Shown piece after piece: positions 49,909 to 56,580 of a stretch of 64,000 nucleotides of DNA (positions are counted from its first letter, which is position 1; the number at the start of each line of letters is the position of its first letter). This stretch comes from an uncultured Gemmatimonadales bacterium (GTDB taxonomy: Bacteria > Gemmatimonadota > Gemmatimonadetes > Gemmatimonadales > Gemmatimonadaceae): positions 1,344,001-1,408,000 of the forward strand of contig CAVPQB010000004.1 of assembly GCA_963707505.1 (NCBI GenBank), in the 5' to 3' direction. Made by a program: the position numbers and the translations under genes. Below the pieces are notes generated by a model that made no database searches, was not told the DNA's origin, and was given only the letters and a program-made list of their open reading frames with translations.

Positions 49909-50636
49909 GGGACCACGCTACCGAAGACAGCGCCGCCCGACAAAGAGCCGCACGGCAGCTGGGCGACTCCGAGAGCGCCGACCAACCGTTGTCCCTCACG
50001 AAGCTCCCTGTCTCCTCCGTGGGGGGTGATGGCGCGAGTACCGCAGCCACGAAAGCACCGGTCGCGTCGCGCTGGACTTGGCCTCCGAGCGGCAGTCCTC
50101 CTTCGGGGCAACGAGCGAGAAGAGCGGCAGTCAGCGGCTGACGCCCCGGCTGGCGACGAAGGGGGAGCGCTCGCCGATCGCCGGTCCGAGCGTCTGCTTG
50201 CTCGCCAACGGCTAGCACCGCTGCGTCGCGAAGTTGCGCTTGGTCGCCGAAGCGATGCCGAGCTGCGCGAGGCTCTGAGACGAAAGCGATCATCACAGTG
50301 TCCTCCAAGTGATGTACGCCGATGAGCCATGCGGCGGCCCCAGCGGTGATCGCCTTCACGCGATTGCGAGGGCGCGGTTGCTGACGCGCCCGGTCGCCTT
50401 CTGCATGCCGTCTGCCCTGGCAACTTCTTCAGGCCGGAGCAGGATCGGCGGGGTGCCGGCGTCCGCGCGTGGGAGACGGTCGGCGAGTCCGTTCAGGTGT
50501 GCGCCGCAGCTCGACAGGAGGTCTCCGGCCGTAGCGCGGGCAGGCACCTCGTGCCGGGCGACGATCTGCGTTGGGGGACCGATGCAGCTGGTCGGTTGCG
50601 TGGTTTGCGCGGGCGAGGCGTATGTTGCTAGCGACG

Positions 50637-51781
50637 ATGGTGAGTGGTCAGCCCGAGGCAGGTGAGCTGCTGGGTGCGTCGTTGCCGCATCTGGTGCCCG
50701 AACGGGTCGTCGAGGTCGCGTCGGCGCAGGCGGGCTGCCCGGTCGCGGCGTATGTGCTGGATCTGGATGGGTCGTTCGCTCTGCGTTTGGCCGGCGATGT
50801 GGAGCGGTTTCCCGAGCGGATCCGTGCGCCGGTCGGTGTCGGCCCGGAGATCATTCCCGAGGCTATGCCGCAGTTGCGGGGGCTGGTGATCGATCGCGTC
50901 GGACCGAGCACGCTGTGGCCGTTGGTGGTTCGCGATCGCGTGATGGGCTTTCTGCTGGCTCGCGACCGGCCGGCGGTTGATCTGGAGCCATTTGCGGGCC
51001 AGGCCGCGTTGGCGCTGGAGTTGGCGTCTGGCTACACCGACGCGTTGCATGCCGTCCGTCGGCGCAAGGACACTCAGCCCGCTGCCGAGATTCAGCAGAA
51101 CCTGTTGCCGCCGCGGCTGGCCCGTGTGGACCGGGCCGACGTCGCCGGGGGTGTGCTGCCGGGCTATGACGTCGGCGGCGACTTCTTTGATTACGCCGCC
51201 AACGCGGACGGCTTGTGGCTGGTCGTCGCTGACGCGACCGGAAAGGGCAATCCGGCCGCGGCGCTGTCTTCGTTGGCGATCGGGGCGCTGCGCGCCGCTC
51301 GCCGTGCCGGCGCTGGTCTGCAGGAAGCCGCGCGGCTGGTCGACGAGGCGATCCTGACGCTCGATACGCCGCTGTACCTGACCGCGGTGCTGGGATCCTG
51401 GGATCCCCACACGTATCGGCTGCGCTGGATCAACTGCGGCCATCCCACGCCGCTCGTCCTGCGCGCCGATGGGCGGATCGAAGAGCTCGACGGCGAGCGC
51501 ACCTATCCGCTGGGCATGCGCTTCGCCGAGCGCGTGTTCCCGGTCCTCAGCGCTGAGGTGGGCCCGGAGACCGCCTCTTGCTGTACTCCGACGGGGTCAG
51601 CGAGCGCCGCACCACAGACGGCGGCCGCATCGGCGAGACGGGCCTGCGTGCGGTTCTGGCCGAGCTGGGTACCCGGTCGGCCGCGATGACGGTACGCGGC
51701 TTGCAAGACGCGGTGATAGACGCCTCCCGTGAACCGCTGCGCGACGACGCCACGATGCTGGTGATCGCGCCCCACGACTGA
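50637..51781 (+). CDS. SpoIIE/RsbU-like PP2C phosphatase, frameshift near 51570
   Basis: EIQQNLLP, VGGDFFD, VADATGKG, NCGHP, LYSDG, RDDATM. Confidence 0.87.
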
Positions 51782-51847
51782 CAACCCAACCGGTCCCAGC
51801 CCGATGCGACGCGGCTAGCCGGTCGTCATCGAGGGTAGCTTCCGATA

Positions 51848-52205
51848 GTGCGCGAGGAGACACGTGAGCCGCGAACAGTCATGTGCGACGACGTCGCGGT
51901 CGTCACGGTCAGCGGCGAGCTCGATCTCGCGCTGTGCATCAAGCTCGCCCCCGAGCTCAATGCCGCGGTGCGCTCCACCGCGCGAGCGGTCGTCATCGAT
52001 CTCGAGGACGTCTCCCTGGTCGATTCCTCGGGTATCGCGCTGCTGCTAAATGCCTTCCGCCATCTAGACCACGCCGGGCGCCAGCTCGCGATCGCCTGCC
52101 CGCATGGGATCGCCGCGCCGCGCGTTCGAGCTGACAGCCCTCGATCGCCAGCTGCCGATGCACGAGACCCGCCGAGATGCGCTGGCTGCCGTACGCGTCA
52201 GCTAA
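51848..52205 (+). CDS. STAS anti-anti-sigma factor (RsbV-like), frameshift near 52110
   Basis: SGELDL, IDLEDVSLVDSSG; tail RRAFELTALD in another frame. Confidence 0.83.
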
Positions 52206-53418
52206 CCGTCTTTGGGTGAGGACAGCCACCGGCGCCAGGCTGGCGGGCGGGATCTAATCGAGAGCGCATCGCTCAGGTGCGTCGTCTAGGTGTAGTTCCT
52301 GACCACGTTGTTCCGGTCTGAGGGGTAAGCCATCCGGTGCTCCTTGGAGGCTGACAGGTGCTCAAGCCAGTCAGTCCCAAGGAGGACACCGGATGAAGAT
52401 GCACGCTAACGCTCGGCTCAGTCTGAAGGGCCGCGAGCTGCTGGTCGATCGCGTCCAGGACGCGGGGTGGTCGCTGGTCGCGGCCGCCGAGGCGGCCGGG
52501 ATCAGTGACCGCACCGCGCGCAAGTGGCTGGCCCGCCACCGGGCTGAAGGGCGCGAGGGGCTGCTGGATCGCTCCTCAGCCCCGACGGTGGTCGCCAATC
52601 GCACCGAGGAGCGCACGGTCGAGGTCATCGCTGCGCTGAGGCGGCTGCGCCTGACCGGCGCGGAGATCGCCGAGTGCCTGGATATGGCGCTCTCGACCGT
52701 GTCGGGGATCCTGACCCGGATCGGGCTGGGGCGGCTGGGGCGGCTGGGCTTGGAGCCCGCGCAGCGCTATGAGCGAGCTCGCCCGGTGAGCTGATCCACA
52801 TCGACGTCAAGAAGCTCGGCCCGATCCACAACGGCGCTGGGCACCGCTTCACCGGCCATCCCGGCCAGCGCCGGGCCGCGGGCAGCCGCACCGACGCCGA
52901 AGGCGTCCGCCGCAACCGCAGCGGCTGGGAGTACGTGCACGTCGCCATCGACGACGCCACCCGCCTGGCCTACGTCGCAGTTCTCGCCAACGAGAAAGCG
53001 CCCACCGCCATCGGATTCCTGCGCCGCGCCGTTCAGCACTTCGCCAGCTACGGCATCACCACCGAGCGACTGATCACCGATAACGGCAGCGCCTACCGCT
53101 CCACCGTCCACGCCATCGCCTGCCGCGCCCTCAAGATCCGCCACCTCCGCACCCGGCCCTACCGACCCCAGACCAACGGCAAAGCCGAACGATTCATCCG
53201 CACCCTGCTCGGCGGCTGGGCCTACGGCGCGATCTACCGCTCAAGCGCCGAGCGCAACGCCGCCCTCGCCGGCTGGCTTGACTTCTACGGATGAAAGTCA
53301 AGTGGCAGGAGCGGTCTGTTGGTGGGATCCTTTCGGGTGGTGCGGGTGACTGACGAAGCGAAGTGCAGGTATCAGGGGCTTGTGGCCTGCCGCGCGGCTT
53401 TGCCCTTCGAGGGCCTTT

Positions 53419-54652
53419 CTAATGCGCGCCCCGGTGTCGCGCCCGCACCACCGTTCGGTCGCTGTCCAGTCGGCGACGAGCCGGCGATAGGCCGTCTCGG
53501 CCTGGCCGGCGAGCTCTTTCTCGAGGCGACGCTGATCGACGCTGGCAAATGTGCGTCCCGCGCTCGCGAGGCGTTTTCCTTGTTGGCGTGGCGCGCCGAG
53601 CATGCAGCTCATAGCGCCGCAGCTTCTCGCGGTGCAGCGAGGGTCGGCCAAACGCGTATCCCTCGCCGCGGCGCAGCATGTGAAACGCGATGACCACGAG
53701 CTTGCGGGCGACCGCGACCGTGGCGATGTTCGCGCCGCGGCGGGCGGCGACCCGCTGGTGGAACGCGCGCAGCGGGCCGGTGGTTCTCGCGGCGTGCCAC
53801 GCCGCTTCGACCAGCAGCCCCCGAACCGGCCCGGGGCCTTGTTTGCTGATCCGGCCGTGCTTGGCGGGCTCGTTACCGGATTGACTGCACCCGCGGGCTC
53901 AGCCCGAGATAGCCGACCAGGTGATCGGCGGTCGGGAACCGGCGCACATCACCGATCGCGGCCAGCATCGCGGTCGCGGTCACGCCGCTGACTCCCGGGA
54001 GGGTCATCAGCCGGCGGATGTCCTCGCTGGCGAGCACCTGCTTGGCGATCTCGATGTCAACCAGCTCGATCTCTGCGGCTAGGAAATCGATCTGGCGCAG
54101 GCACGCATCGACTGTCTGCTGCTCATCGGTCGGCAGCAGCCTGCACTGGTCAGAGAGCCAGATACGTCCCTTGACCCCGAACACGTCTGTCATCGGTGGC
54201 CGGCTCTTGAGCTGGCGTTGGAGAACGGCGTGCACCTGGTTCTTCTCACGCACCCGCTGACGCACGAGGTGCATTCGCCGGGAGATCAGGCGCCGACGGA
54301 CCCGCGTGGGCTCATCAGGCGTCCACACCTCCGCCAGGAAGCCTGCCGCCAGCAGACGAGCCAACAGCGCCGCGTCGATCTTGTCGGTCTTGGCTCGCAG
54401 ACCGGTGATCCTCTTCACCGACTTCGGGTCGGCCAGCACCACCTGCGCGACGTGCGGCTCGACGATCCGGGCGATCGCCAAGGCGTTCGCCGTGGCCTCC
54501 ATCGCGACCACATCGTCCGGCGCCAGGCTGCACGCGAACACCTCCAGCTCTGACGGGGTGCTCGCCACCTGACCGGCGAAGCGCAACCTGCCGTCCTCGA
54601 CGACCGCGACCTCGCAGAAGTCACGATGGACATCTACTCCGATGAACCTCAC
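53419..54652 (-). CDS. IS110 recombinase A, frameshifts near 53885 and 53605
   Basis: IGVDVH, AMEAT, KTDKIDA (DEDD); LPGVS, GLSPRV.QSG, LVEAA, AVARKL. Confidence 0.88.
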
Positions 54653-54669
54653 CACCACCTCCTTCAGCT

Positions 54670-54880
54670 CGAAGAAGCAAGGTGGAGACGCGGCGGGCAA
54701 AACGACAACTACGGATCCGTGCTCGAAGCACACCCGGGCAAGTCGCGGGGGCGGCCAACTACAAATTGCGGGCTCTCAGCCCATAGAACTAACGGCCTGC
54801 CCAGCCAACGTTCTCCCGGAACCCCCGTCCCGGAACGCCGCCAACCTACGACGGGCCCCGGACACAACGGGCTCCAGGAC
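54670..54880 (-). ncRNA. Putative bridge RNA of IS110-A
   Basis: AGUUCUA and UUGUAG match target actt-CT-acaa; UGCCC and AUCCGUAG match donor tgccc-CT-acggat; each pair flanks a hairpin; ends approximate. Confidence 0.68.
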
Positions 54881-55059
54881 GCAGTTTCATGCCCCTACAA
54901 TCGCCGCCGACCACACGGCGCCCTCAGCCACAAGCCACCCATCGACCGCCTCAACGAACGGAACAACCTCCTCGGGTCCTACAGCTGATATGGAGAGTCG
55001 TTTGTCAACCCGGGCGCGGTGATTTGTCGCTGGTGGCGCCGTGGGGGTGTGGGTGTGGT

Positions 55060-55260
55060 CGGCTGGGTGGGTGGCGGTCCGGCTTGCTGTGCGCGACGCG
55101 CGGTCAGGCTGATATTCGCGGGTTGGGACCGCAGGACCATGTTCGTCGTGGGGAGCCGCTGTCTAGGATCGGGCGTGGCCGGCCGGTGAGGGCGGGTTGC
55201 TCATAGCTGTCTCGCGGGTTCCCCGCGCGTGCCGGGCCGCCACCGACCCAGCCGACGGGA
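55060..55260 (-). ncRNA. Putative bridge/seek RNA of IS110-B
   Basis: ACAGCUA and CCUAG match target acag-CT-agg; AUAUCAG is complementary to donor CT-gatat; ends approximate. Confidence 0.68.
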
Positions 55261-55274
55261 TGAGGGACTCGGGG

Positions 55275-56357
55275 TTACTCGATTTGGCTGATCGCCCAGC
55301 AGAACCCGGCGAGCTCGCGGGCGGCGGCGACGGCGATGATCGTGCGGCGCTTGGCGCGGGCCTCCAGACGGGTCCAGGTGCGATGCAGTCGCCGTTGGGC
55401 TGACCAGGCGATCGCGATCGCCTCGGGTGGCTGGCCGTCCTGGCGCTCGGTGAGTGCCTTGCCGATCGCGGGGCGCTTGCGGTAGTGCCAGGCGGCTTCG
55501 ACCAGCAGCCGCCGGGCGTGCCCAGAACCGGTCTTGGTGATCGACCCCAGCCGTCGCTGCTGCCCGGTGGTGTTCTCGCACGGGACTAGGCCGACGTAGT
55601 TCATCAGCTGCTCGGCCTTCGCGAACCGTTCGAAGTCGCCGATCTCTGAGCACAGCCCGACCGCGGTGAGCGTGTCGACCCCGCGCAGGCATCGCAGCCG
55701 CCCGACCTGCGTGGCCCACGGCGAGCTCGGGAGCAGCGCGAGGATCTCGCGCTCTAACGCGTCGCGGCGGTGACAGAGCGCGTCGATCGCTCCCTGCACG
55801 TCGAGCAGCGTCGATTGCGCGGCCGGCCACTGCAGCGTGATCGTCGCCAGCCAGGCTCGGTGGCGGTCTGTCCACGCCTTCCCGTCGTCAAACCGGATCC
55901 CGTGACGCAACAGCAGCTTGGAGAGCCGATGCCGGGAGCGCATCAGATCCACCCGAACCTGCTCGCGGGCGCGGACCAGGTCGCGCAGCGCCTCCTCCTC
56001 GGGCCCGGGCACCCTGACCGGGTGAAGCTTGCCGGCCAACAACAACCGGACCAGATGCTCGGCGTCACGCCGATCGGTCTTGACCCGATCCCCCGACGCC
56101 CGCGGGATCTTGCTCGGCGCCGCGACCACGCACTCCACGCCGCGCCGCGCGAGCTCCCGCGCGAGCCCGTACCCGGTCGGGCCGGCCTCATACGCGACCC
56201 GCACCGGCCGCGGCAATCCCGCGCAGAACCCGGCCGCCCCACCAGCATCACCGCTCATCGCAAACCGCGACAGCTCCCCGGTCTCCGCGTCCAGCACCGC
56301 CGCGACGATCTTCGCCGCGTGCACGTCCAAGCCGACGACGGTCCTAGCCTTCGCCAT
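55275..56357 (-). CDS. IS110 recombinase B, intact ORF
   Basis: VGLDVH, YEAGPTG, KTDRRDA, GLVPCENTTG, ITKTG, LVEAAW, AAARELA. Confidence 0.95.
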   Translation of the reverse strand: MAKARTVVGLDVHAAKIVAAVLDAETGELSRFAMSGDAGGAAGFCAGLPRPVRVAYEAGPTGYGLARELARRGVECVVAAPSKIPRASGDRVKTDRRDAEHLVRLLLAGKLHPVRVPGPEEEALRDLVRAREQVRVDLMRSRHRLSKLLLRHGIRFDDGKAWTDRHRAWLATITLQWPAAQSTLLDVQGAIDALCHRRDALEREILALLPSSPWATQVGRLRCLRGVDTLTAVGLCSEIGDFERFAKAEQLMNYVGLVPCENTTGQQRRLGSITKTGSGHARRLLVEAAWHYRKRPAIGKALTERQDGQPPEAIAIAWSAQRRLHRTWTRLEARAKRRTIIAVAAARELAGFCWAISQIE

Positions 56358-56580
56358 GGCTGGTTCCTCCTATGCGATTGTGGGCCGCCGCGCGGGTACC
56401 AGCCGCGCGGCATAACTTCACCCCCACCGACGACGTGGGGGGAACCGGCCTCTTCTATCTCTCAGGCCGGACGGACCAACAATCCATATTGTCTAGGCGA
56501 GCCGGGGCAGCAGGTCGGCATGTCTCTGCTCCCTCCCGTTCGTCGACTCGCCGTCGGGCAGGTTGCGCGGACCCCAGTTG

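Follow-up and report, generated by a model that had tools for sequence, protein, structure and literature searches.

A predicted bridge (seek) RNA in the left end of an IS110/IS1111-family element, with a target loop matching Tyr-Asn codons of the IS481 transposase gene it interrupts

The left non-coding end of the insertion element IS110-A very probably encodes the bridge (seek) RNA of an IS110/IS1111-family element, with a target loop that matches the Tyr-Asn codons of the IS481 transposase gene interrupted by the element. The features in Table 1 are numbered in the window, the whole 64,000-nt stretch of an uncultured Gemmatimonadales genome (G000) that was analysed. The evidence is drawn from sequence and consists of the element ends, the TA core, the two-loop RNA scaffold, covariation of guides and sites among homologues, and enrichment of Y-N-x-x-R-x-H at the sites of this guide class.

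Table 1. Features of IS110-A and of the IS481 element that it interrupts (window positions)
Feature	Position	Strand	Remarks
IS110-family DEDD recombinase (D7, E52, D90, D93)	53370..54652	-	PF01548 and PF02371; end approximate
Left non-coding end of IS110-A with predicted guide RNA	54653..54895	-	243 nt, upstream of recombinase
Long 5' stem-loop	54815..54878	-	-43.1 kcal/mol, z -4.3, 0/200 shuffles; absent from the first-pass annotation
Target loop 5' side, AGUUCUA	54784..54790	-	complements core and flank past right end (IS481 codons D-F-Y)
Target-loop hairpin, UGGGC/GCCCG	54769..54783	-	11 compensatory cells, 99.7% paired, 62 sequences
Hairpin segment GGGCTGAGAGCCC	54782-54770	-	within target loop
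Target loop 3' side, CAAUUUGUAGU	54758..54768	-	sense of flank before left end and core (codons Y-N), one extra base
TTGTAG	54764-54759	-	within target loop 3' side
Donor loop 5' side, includes UGCCC (54740-54736)	54733..54742	-	complements left-end positions 2-6 from core; weakly supported
Donor-loop hairpin, UGUGC/GCACG	54718..54732	-	16 compensatory changes at one pair, 100% paired
Hairpin segment GTGCTTCGAGCAC	54731-54719	-	within donor loop
Donor loop 3' side, GAUCCGUAGU	54707..54717	-	sense of element's right end and core; exact 8-mer
ATCCGTAG	54716-54709	-	54709-54716 equals 53285-53292
TA core, left junction	54896..54897	.	first two bases of Tyr codon
TA core, right junction	53286..53287	.	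from junction comparison and contigs skipping 1610 bases (runs X1-X3, X5, X14, X19)
Left short inverted repeat, ATGAAA	54883..54890	-	7 nt in, core counted; overlaps predicted -10 box GAAACT of circle junction
Predicted -35 box TTGACT and right short inverted repeat TTTCAT	53291..53301	-	repeat 3 nt from core; from rebuilt junctions
Host IS481 element, TGT...ACA ends	52291..54983	+	transposase start 52393, broken after F-Y; PF13011, rve, rve_3
Separated IS481 tail	54899..54985	+	29 codons, begins N-R-R-R-P-H

The element and the gene it interrupts

IS110-A is 1610 bp long, counting one TA, and is bounded by TA dinucleotides (53286-87 and 54896-97). The IS481 reading frame runs to ...GWLDFY and then meets G and a stop codon within the element, with the 29 residues after the Tyr on its far side; this frame reading confirms the claim of the first-pass annotation that the transposase loses its last ~29 residues, and places the insertion at G-W-L-D-F-Y|N-R-R-R-P-H. 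The best match of the transposase fragment is NF033577, at a score below cut-off for this fragment. The DDE triad is retained and the C-terminal motif is lost, a loss which, judging from the sequence, probably inactivates the transposase. IS110-A is present as a single copy in the source genome, where no second IS481-like gene was found. Joints corresponding to the empty site, with 1610 bases skipped, a 4-letter overlap and a single core remaining, were present in contigs from six of eight sequencing runs; the sides of these contigs are short (19-39 letters), and they may derive from related IS481 elements of other organisms. No circle-junction joint was among the joints listed from the contigs of the sequencing runs.

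Homologues were gathered in two sets. The genome set, collected with the N-terminal 259 aa of the recombinase as query, comprises the best 79 of ~620 loci, plus the window. Among order-level relatives of the source genome, a long homologue was found in one of 300, the others giving short chance matches. In the genome set, element ends were located by terminal motifs, independently of the guides, and both junctions were available for 60 loci. The truncated locus L037 was excluded from the left-end alignment, L048 and L092, in which the left ends are replaced, were excluded from left-junction counts, L057 was placed by hand, and seven guides outside the pattern were re-parsed. The metagenome set of 120 loci (L114-L233) was found with a pattern omitting the target loop, and provided 107 parsed loops with 72 left and 16 right flanks. 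An identical 2-nt core, TA or TC, occurs at both junctions in 58 of the 60 genome-set loci with both junctions (from the best 79 of ~620) and in 15 of 17 metagenome loci, and no further duplication accompanies it, as is usual in the IS110 family. The two junction cores differ (TG, TA) in L038, L040 and L110, and L040 has TG in both of its 3' guide sides; such unequal cores may mark where the strands are exchanged. In L080 the final 20 bp of the right end stand in tandem, in two copies, at the right junction. The family's circle-junction promoter is present as predicted boxes: the rebuilt circle junctions read TTGACT, 17 bp, GANNNT in 63 of 63 cases, TTGACT having been the anchor for locating right ends.

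The recombinase has the DEDD RuvC-like domain and the Transposase_20 domain with the catalytic serine motif of the IS110 family. Its frame is broken in this assembly near 53887, 53604 and 53456 by bases that are extra with respect to intact relatives, and the S-G motif sits just beyond the first of these breaks. Short-read contigs ~99% identical to the region are free of the recombinase frameshifts and also of a break in IS481 at 52781; the recombinase breaks probably either reflect errors of assembly or occur in this copy alone. Two genes adjoining IS481 (window 50571-52219), which we take to be PP2C-like and anti-sigma-antagonist-like, likewise look frameshifted, which would fit indel errors in this stretch of the assembly. 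An open frame of at least 360 aa is found in 73 of the 79 genome-set rows (best 79 of ~620), and intact relatives pass NF033542 with 244 against a cut-off of 140. Because intact natural copies exist, no repair of the recombinase is needed.

From ~36000 of the window to the end of the contig (G000:C4 1380001-1438271), the GC content changes from 62-63% to 66-70% and the tetranucleotide distance from ~0.10 to 0.24-0.30. The closest homologues are mostly from Solirubrobacterales-type soil actinobacteria. The region is a foreign island or a chimeric join, which makes the host uncertain.

Structure of the RNA and covariation with its sites

The segments originally assigned to a bridge RNA lie on the minus strand where the first-pass annotation had placed them, the identity of 54709-54716 with 53285-53292 included. 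AGTTCTA matches the target arm ACTTCTA (53281-53287) at 6/7 letters, and TTGTAG complements CTACAA (54895-54900), both as claimed. TTGTAG is, however, only part of the 3' target guide, which is longer and contains one extra base; two candidate handshake bases come after its core match. When the 241-nt left end was dinucleotide-shuffled 20,000 times, with either strand allowed, the AGTTCTA arm was matched 4332 times, the TTGTAG arm 1488 times and the donor 8-mer 44 times, and the three longer matches never occurred jointly (0/20,000). TGCCC was found in 12359 of the shuffles and by itself is thus no evidence. The frequency of each short match in shuffles, together with an Rfam search that returned two weak matches far below threshold, none within the RNA, and no family at E < 0.26, is what could be said for reading the matches as chance or as left-over duplications of the element ends, and the region as only a promoter or leader. 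Against the covariation seen in two sets of homologues and the compensatory changes in the hairpins, this is scarcely credible.

Folding of the single sequence returns the two-hairpin layout at an energy no better than that of shuffles (z -0.48 and +0.39), so structural support comes from the alignment. There, the two hairpins together show 29 compensatory cells against 4.1 when shuffled, with 98% of cells paired; the closing stems are almost invariant and hence uninformative. RNAalifold pairs the outer GGGC otherwise than in the model adopted here, and the two sides of the donor loop are able to pair together in the free RNA. The scaffold is strongly conserved across homologues and the loop sides are variable, and a two-loop structured RNA thus occupies the non-coding end, as in other members of the IS110 family. 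The model R1 matches 54815-54684 with 144 bits, the window being included in R1's own alignment. A metatranscriptome contig of a relative (54573-54845, depth 2.5, 13 differences) was uninformative as evidence of expression.

Both sides of the target loop covary with the flanks of the element, as the IS110 family's bridge RNAs do; this was the check proposed in the first-pass annotation, and its reading withstood it in the genome and the metagenome set. In the genome set (best 79 of ~620 loci), agreement of the 3' target side with the left flank at positions 1-3 was 1.00/0.88/0.98 against 0.51/0.60/0.66 shuffled (41 distinct pairs). For the 5' target side and the right flank it was 0.49 against 0.28, with a best shuffle of 0.37 (57 pairs), rising to 0.61-0.74 against 0.25-0.41 at positions 1-3 and 5 from the core (57 distinct pairs). 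To limit the effect of kinship among related elements, which are not independent, the count was repeated with a single row for each guide state, and in the same set (best 79 of ~620) 58 of 60 letters over 12 states then agreed on the 3' side (31.6 shuffled, 0/200,000) and 104 of 165 on the 5' side (48.8 shuffled). The metagenome set gave 0.62-0.67 against 0.26-0.38 shuffled on the 3' side (52 pairs) and 0.87/0.73 against 0.39/0.40 on the 5' side (15 pairs); its signal is lowered by 12 loci with an 8-nt left extension, which were kept off register. The guide order of IS621 gave no signal in either set (0.21-0.22 vs 0.24-0.26 shuffled in the genome set). Guide states track recombinase clades, each with its own sites, on a recombinase tree that is a quick version without bootstrap, and in a clade-by-clade matrix 11 of the 15 scored guide clades had their best fit at their own sites; of the four exceptions, three favoured another Y-N clade. 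Where the 3' side has 6 nt before the core, pairing extends over 5 nt (27 and 25 of 29); with the 7 nt seen in the window's class, pairing resumes past the one extra base in 23 of 28. Handshake pairing at the target loop is suggested by the first base after the target-loop core, which equals the donor base in 21 of 39 loci (10.8 shuffled), but this base also equals the element's own target in 19 of 39 (11.9).

At the donor loop, the core of the 3' side is identical to the junction core, TA or TC, in 65 of 66 loci of the genome set (best 79 of ~620). The 5' side agrees with the element end at 0.586 against 0.559 shuffled (best shuffle 0.593), and its core is mismatched in most loci; TGCCC, the candidate 5' donor guide, does lie where it was reported, but its agreement is near the shuffled level and it is the weakest part of the model. 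The donor is nearly invariant, which gives the covariation test low power, with eight distinct pairs for the 3' side. This invariance, the ability of the donor sides to pair with each other, and the movement of ISEc11 and ISEc21 with target-loop-only RNAs described in the available part of PMC11187229 would all suit a seekRNA model, in which the target loop alone is the guide, the second loop is structural and the protein recognises the ends via the short inverted repeats. That model is considered improbable for this element: the donor 3' side not only tracks the core but follows rare changes of the right end (GCG in L072/L078, CCC in L099/L100), and the compensatory changes of the donor hairpin likewise speak against it.

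The target motif and its hosts

Among sites of the window's guide class, N-x-x-R-x-H follows the insertion point in 23 of 28 genome sites (from the best 79 of ~620 loci) and five of six metagenome sites, 28 of 34 in all, and in other guide classes in 0 of 78. The homologue sites thus support the earlier proposal of a conserved transposase coding motif as the site, and modify its identity. The first-pass annotation had named the FYN codons; Y-N (TAC AAY) is fixed, but the residue encoded just before Tyr can be F, H, Y, W, D or T. The guide is accordingly aimed at Y-N and not at F-Y-N, and IS3 and other integrase-core genes are targeted as well as IS481. The codon before Tyr as read by the guide equals that of the site in 13 of 28 cases, the 5' target side being loose. 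Non-self tblastn integrase matches to a six-protein query set reach the junction in only 16 of 28. Host profile scores lie above cut-off for IS481 (L060) and IS3 (L047, L080), and other integrase-core genes are also among the hosts.

A rather unlikely alternative is that the guide is genuine without being tuned to transposases: it would read a short common word, and the insertions that persist would mostly be those in IS genes, which are dispensable. The source genome contains CTACAA 869 times and TTCTACAA 77 times, the exact motif is missing at six of the 34 sites of the class, a few of these six lying in unrelated genes (L081, a methylase; L070), and the 5' guide is loose. However, the R and H residues lie beyond the reach of the guide and are present at 28 of the 34 sites, separate branches are directed at T-D-N-G and at T-N-G-Q-V-E / N-G-K-A-E, both of them further motifs of the same protein family, and seven copies in G303 with the same guide and a readable left junction all read TTG-TA. 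The first of these further motifs belongs to a guide class with the 3' side TTG-TT, in which N-G (of T-D-N-G in IS481/IS3) comes next in nine of ten sites. The second is the site of plasmid relatives at 49-50% identity and with the same scaffold, one of them annotated ISMch4, which are inserted at T-N-G-Q-V-E or N-G-K-A-E of IS481-type genes. A guide aimed at transposase codons remains the preferred reading.

Several further guide classes were observed in the two sets. One is found at the stop codon of SnoaL-like genes (L069, L071, L073, L075, L077, L079, L085; also L126, L172, L175, L200), in six of the seven loci with a Pfam match, and a similar gene starting M-S-Q-E-N-V is often next; these sites look like tandem arrays with a conserved junction. 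Another lies at CTTGACA-TA-GGAG (L072, L078, L094, L101, L168), in L078, L094 and L101 immediately 3' of other IS110 recombinase genes, a case of IS110 targeting IS110 ends. GTGGTG-TA sites (L062, L074, L083, L087, L102, L109, L127, L137, L142, L229) presumably resemble IS256-family ends. In the largest metagenome class (33/107; 3' side TAG-TA) the left repeat is preceded by 8 nt, and the sites resemble GTTGG-TA. A tRNA-Phe target for L105-L107 was rejected, as ARAGORN found no tRNA at the rebuilt sites. Hitchhiking of the composite was likewise not accepted: L039 has the same composite elsewhere, with the left part of its IS481 84% and its IS110 95% identical to the window, and by these identities separate insertions fit equally well.

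Relation to known systems and proposed mechanism

In IS621 and ISCro4 the core is CT (available text of PMC11208160 and PMC11208158, the latter by Hiraizumi et al., who also describe the handshake bases), whereas it is TA or TC here; according to the same available text, their guides follow the opposite order relative to the element and their subterminal repeats are 2-3 bp, against 4-6 bp here. Their recombinases match that of the window in the N-terminal domain only (E 4e-8, 4e-6). As far as the available part of PMC11187229 describes them, IS1111 RNAs present the top-strand complement first, the repeats lie 7 and 3 nt from the ends and the RNA is usually downstream, with ISMtsp17 as a published exception with an upstream region. 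The available descriptions of the IS1111 seekRNAs of ISEc11, ISKpn4 and ISPa11 share with the window the top-strand complement before the bottom-strand match; the group also shares the G-L-x-P-x4-S-G motif and the distances of the repeats from the left (7 nt) and right (3 nt) ends, and also targets other mobile DNA (IS4321/IS5075, Tn21 ends), but its RNA is downstream and its repeats are usually 11-13 bp, whereas here the RNA is upstream.

The element departs from each subgroup in a defining character, because it combines the order and spacing of IS1111 with short repeats and an upstream RNA. The RNA is in the left end, as in the IS110 group (IS621 type), but the bottom-strand guide does not stand 5' of the top-strand guide; the order is that of IS1111, with the top-strand complement first. 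Repeats lie 7 and 3 nt from the ends in the window and the genome set, and at 8 nt in one metagenome class (12/72). They fall short of the 7-17 bp of IS1111, with a perfect stretch of 4-6 bp in 58 of 63 and of 8 bp in one, and in place of a long non-coding region downstream, intact relatives have ~80 nt. The IS110 bridge-RNA layout first ascribed to the element holds for the two-loop scaffold 5' of the recombinase, but not for the arrangement found in IS621, the guide order being reversed and IS1111-like.

The nearest named relative is ISMch4, whose recombinase is 46% identical to that of the window over 256 aa. The plasmid copy annotated with this name has the same upstream RNA scaffold (112 bits) and also interrupts an IS481-type transposase, but at H-P-W-T|N-G-Q-V-E as against Y|N here, and its left repeat is preceded by 8 nt instead of 7. 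In the portions of Siddiquee et al. 2024 available (PMC11187229), ISMch4 appears in the source data only, with 17 copies and one unique site; it is listed there with ISAtu7 and ISPye32 as IS1111 family, and the published matrix gives it 48-51% identity to these two and <=32.4% to all others. A full-text literature search found no paper for the name ISMch4. The same available text describes ISEc21 of the IS110 group, the seekRNA of which is likewise upstream and aimed at a conserved coding motif of a DDE transposase, the codons around the second Asp of IS3 transposases. In ISEc21, however, the bottom-strand match comes first, where here the top-strand complement does, and motif and host differ (Y-N of IS481/IS3 here), as does recombinase length (358 aa vs ~425 here).

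If the element works as IS621 and ISEc11 do, its circular form would join the -35 box of the right end to the -10 box of the left end and so transcribe the RNA, which the recombinase would bind. Pairing would involve both strands around the TA core for the target loop and the circle junction for the donor loop, and exchange of strands at the core would then leave the element inserted antisense to the host gene. A motif common to IS481, IS3 and related integrase genes may benefit the element by providing a large supply of dispensable landing sites. Neither the mechanism nor the habit of aiming at transposase codons is new; what appears to be undescribed is the Y-N target, the mixed layout and how widely the guides have been retargeted in nature. 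Neither Y-N targeting of IS481 nor this layout was found in the literature searched, including the available parts of 10.64898/2026.08.14.744561, 10.64898/2026.08.31.748434, 10.1101/2025.10.25.684509, 10.1101/2025.05.14.653916, 10.1101/2024.06.21.599552, PMC13626964 and 10.64898/2026.10.21.760802; the 86 bridge RNA models of the Evo-PIN preprint, as far as its available text goes, may include the clade.

Tentatively, the ISMch4 branch could represent a third family architecture, with IS1111-type ends and guide order and a two-loop RNA in the left end, possibly an intermediate in the move of the RNA between ends. Its guides would have been repeatedly retuned to conserved motifs of other mobile DNA (three IS481/IS3 integrase motifs and other IS110 ends), making the element a parasite that silences its host element and is able to ride on it; this wider proposal is possible but doubtful. 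For a soil branch of bridge recombinases that is abundant (estimated at ~2,100 metagenome stretches), little studied and distant from IS621, the clade provides a guide code that can be read. With a TA or TC core, reversed order and 12 or more natural target states on a single scaffold, it forms a test set for guide rules, and it shows that the position of the RNA and the order of its guides can be uncoupled. The ISEc21 observation, which concerned one IS3 motif, is extended to a Y-N motif common to IS481 and IS3.

A second, intact IS110-family element (360 aa; window 54985-56495, minus strand) lies in the CT of the right-hand target duplication of IS481. Its junctions read TCTAGG on the left and, rebuilt, GCTAGG on the right, and in its downstream RNA ACAGCTA (55210-55204) and CCTAGAC (55167-55161) match its site. 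Its two relatives with readable ends carry other guides and occupy other sites, so a habit of following IS481 is not supported for this element. Within the clade of IS110-A, two elements adjoin within 2 kb in L036, L050 and L064.
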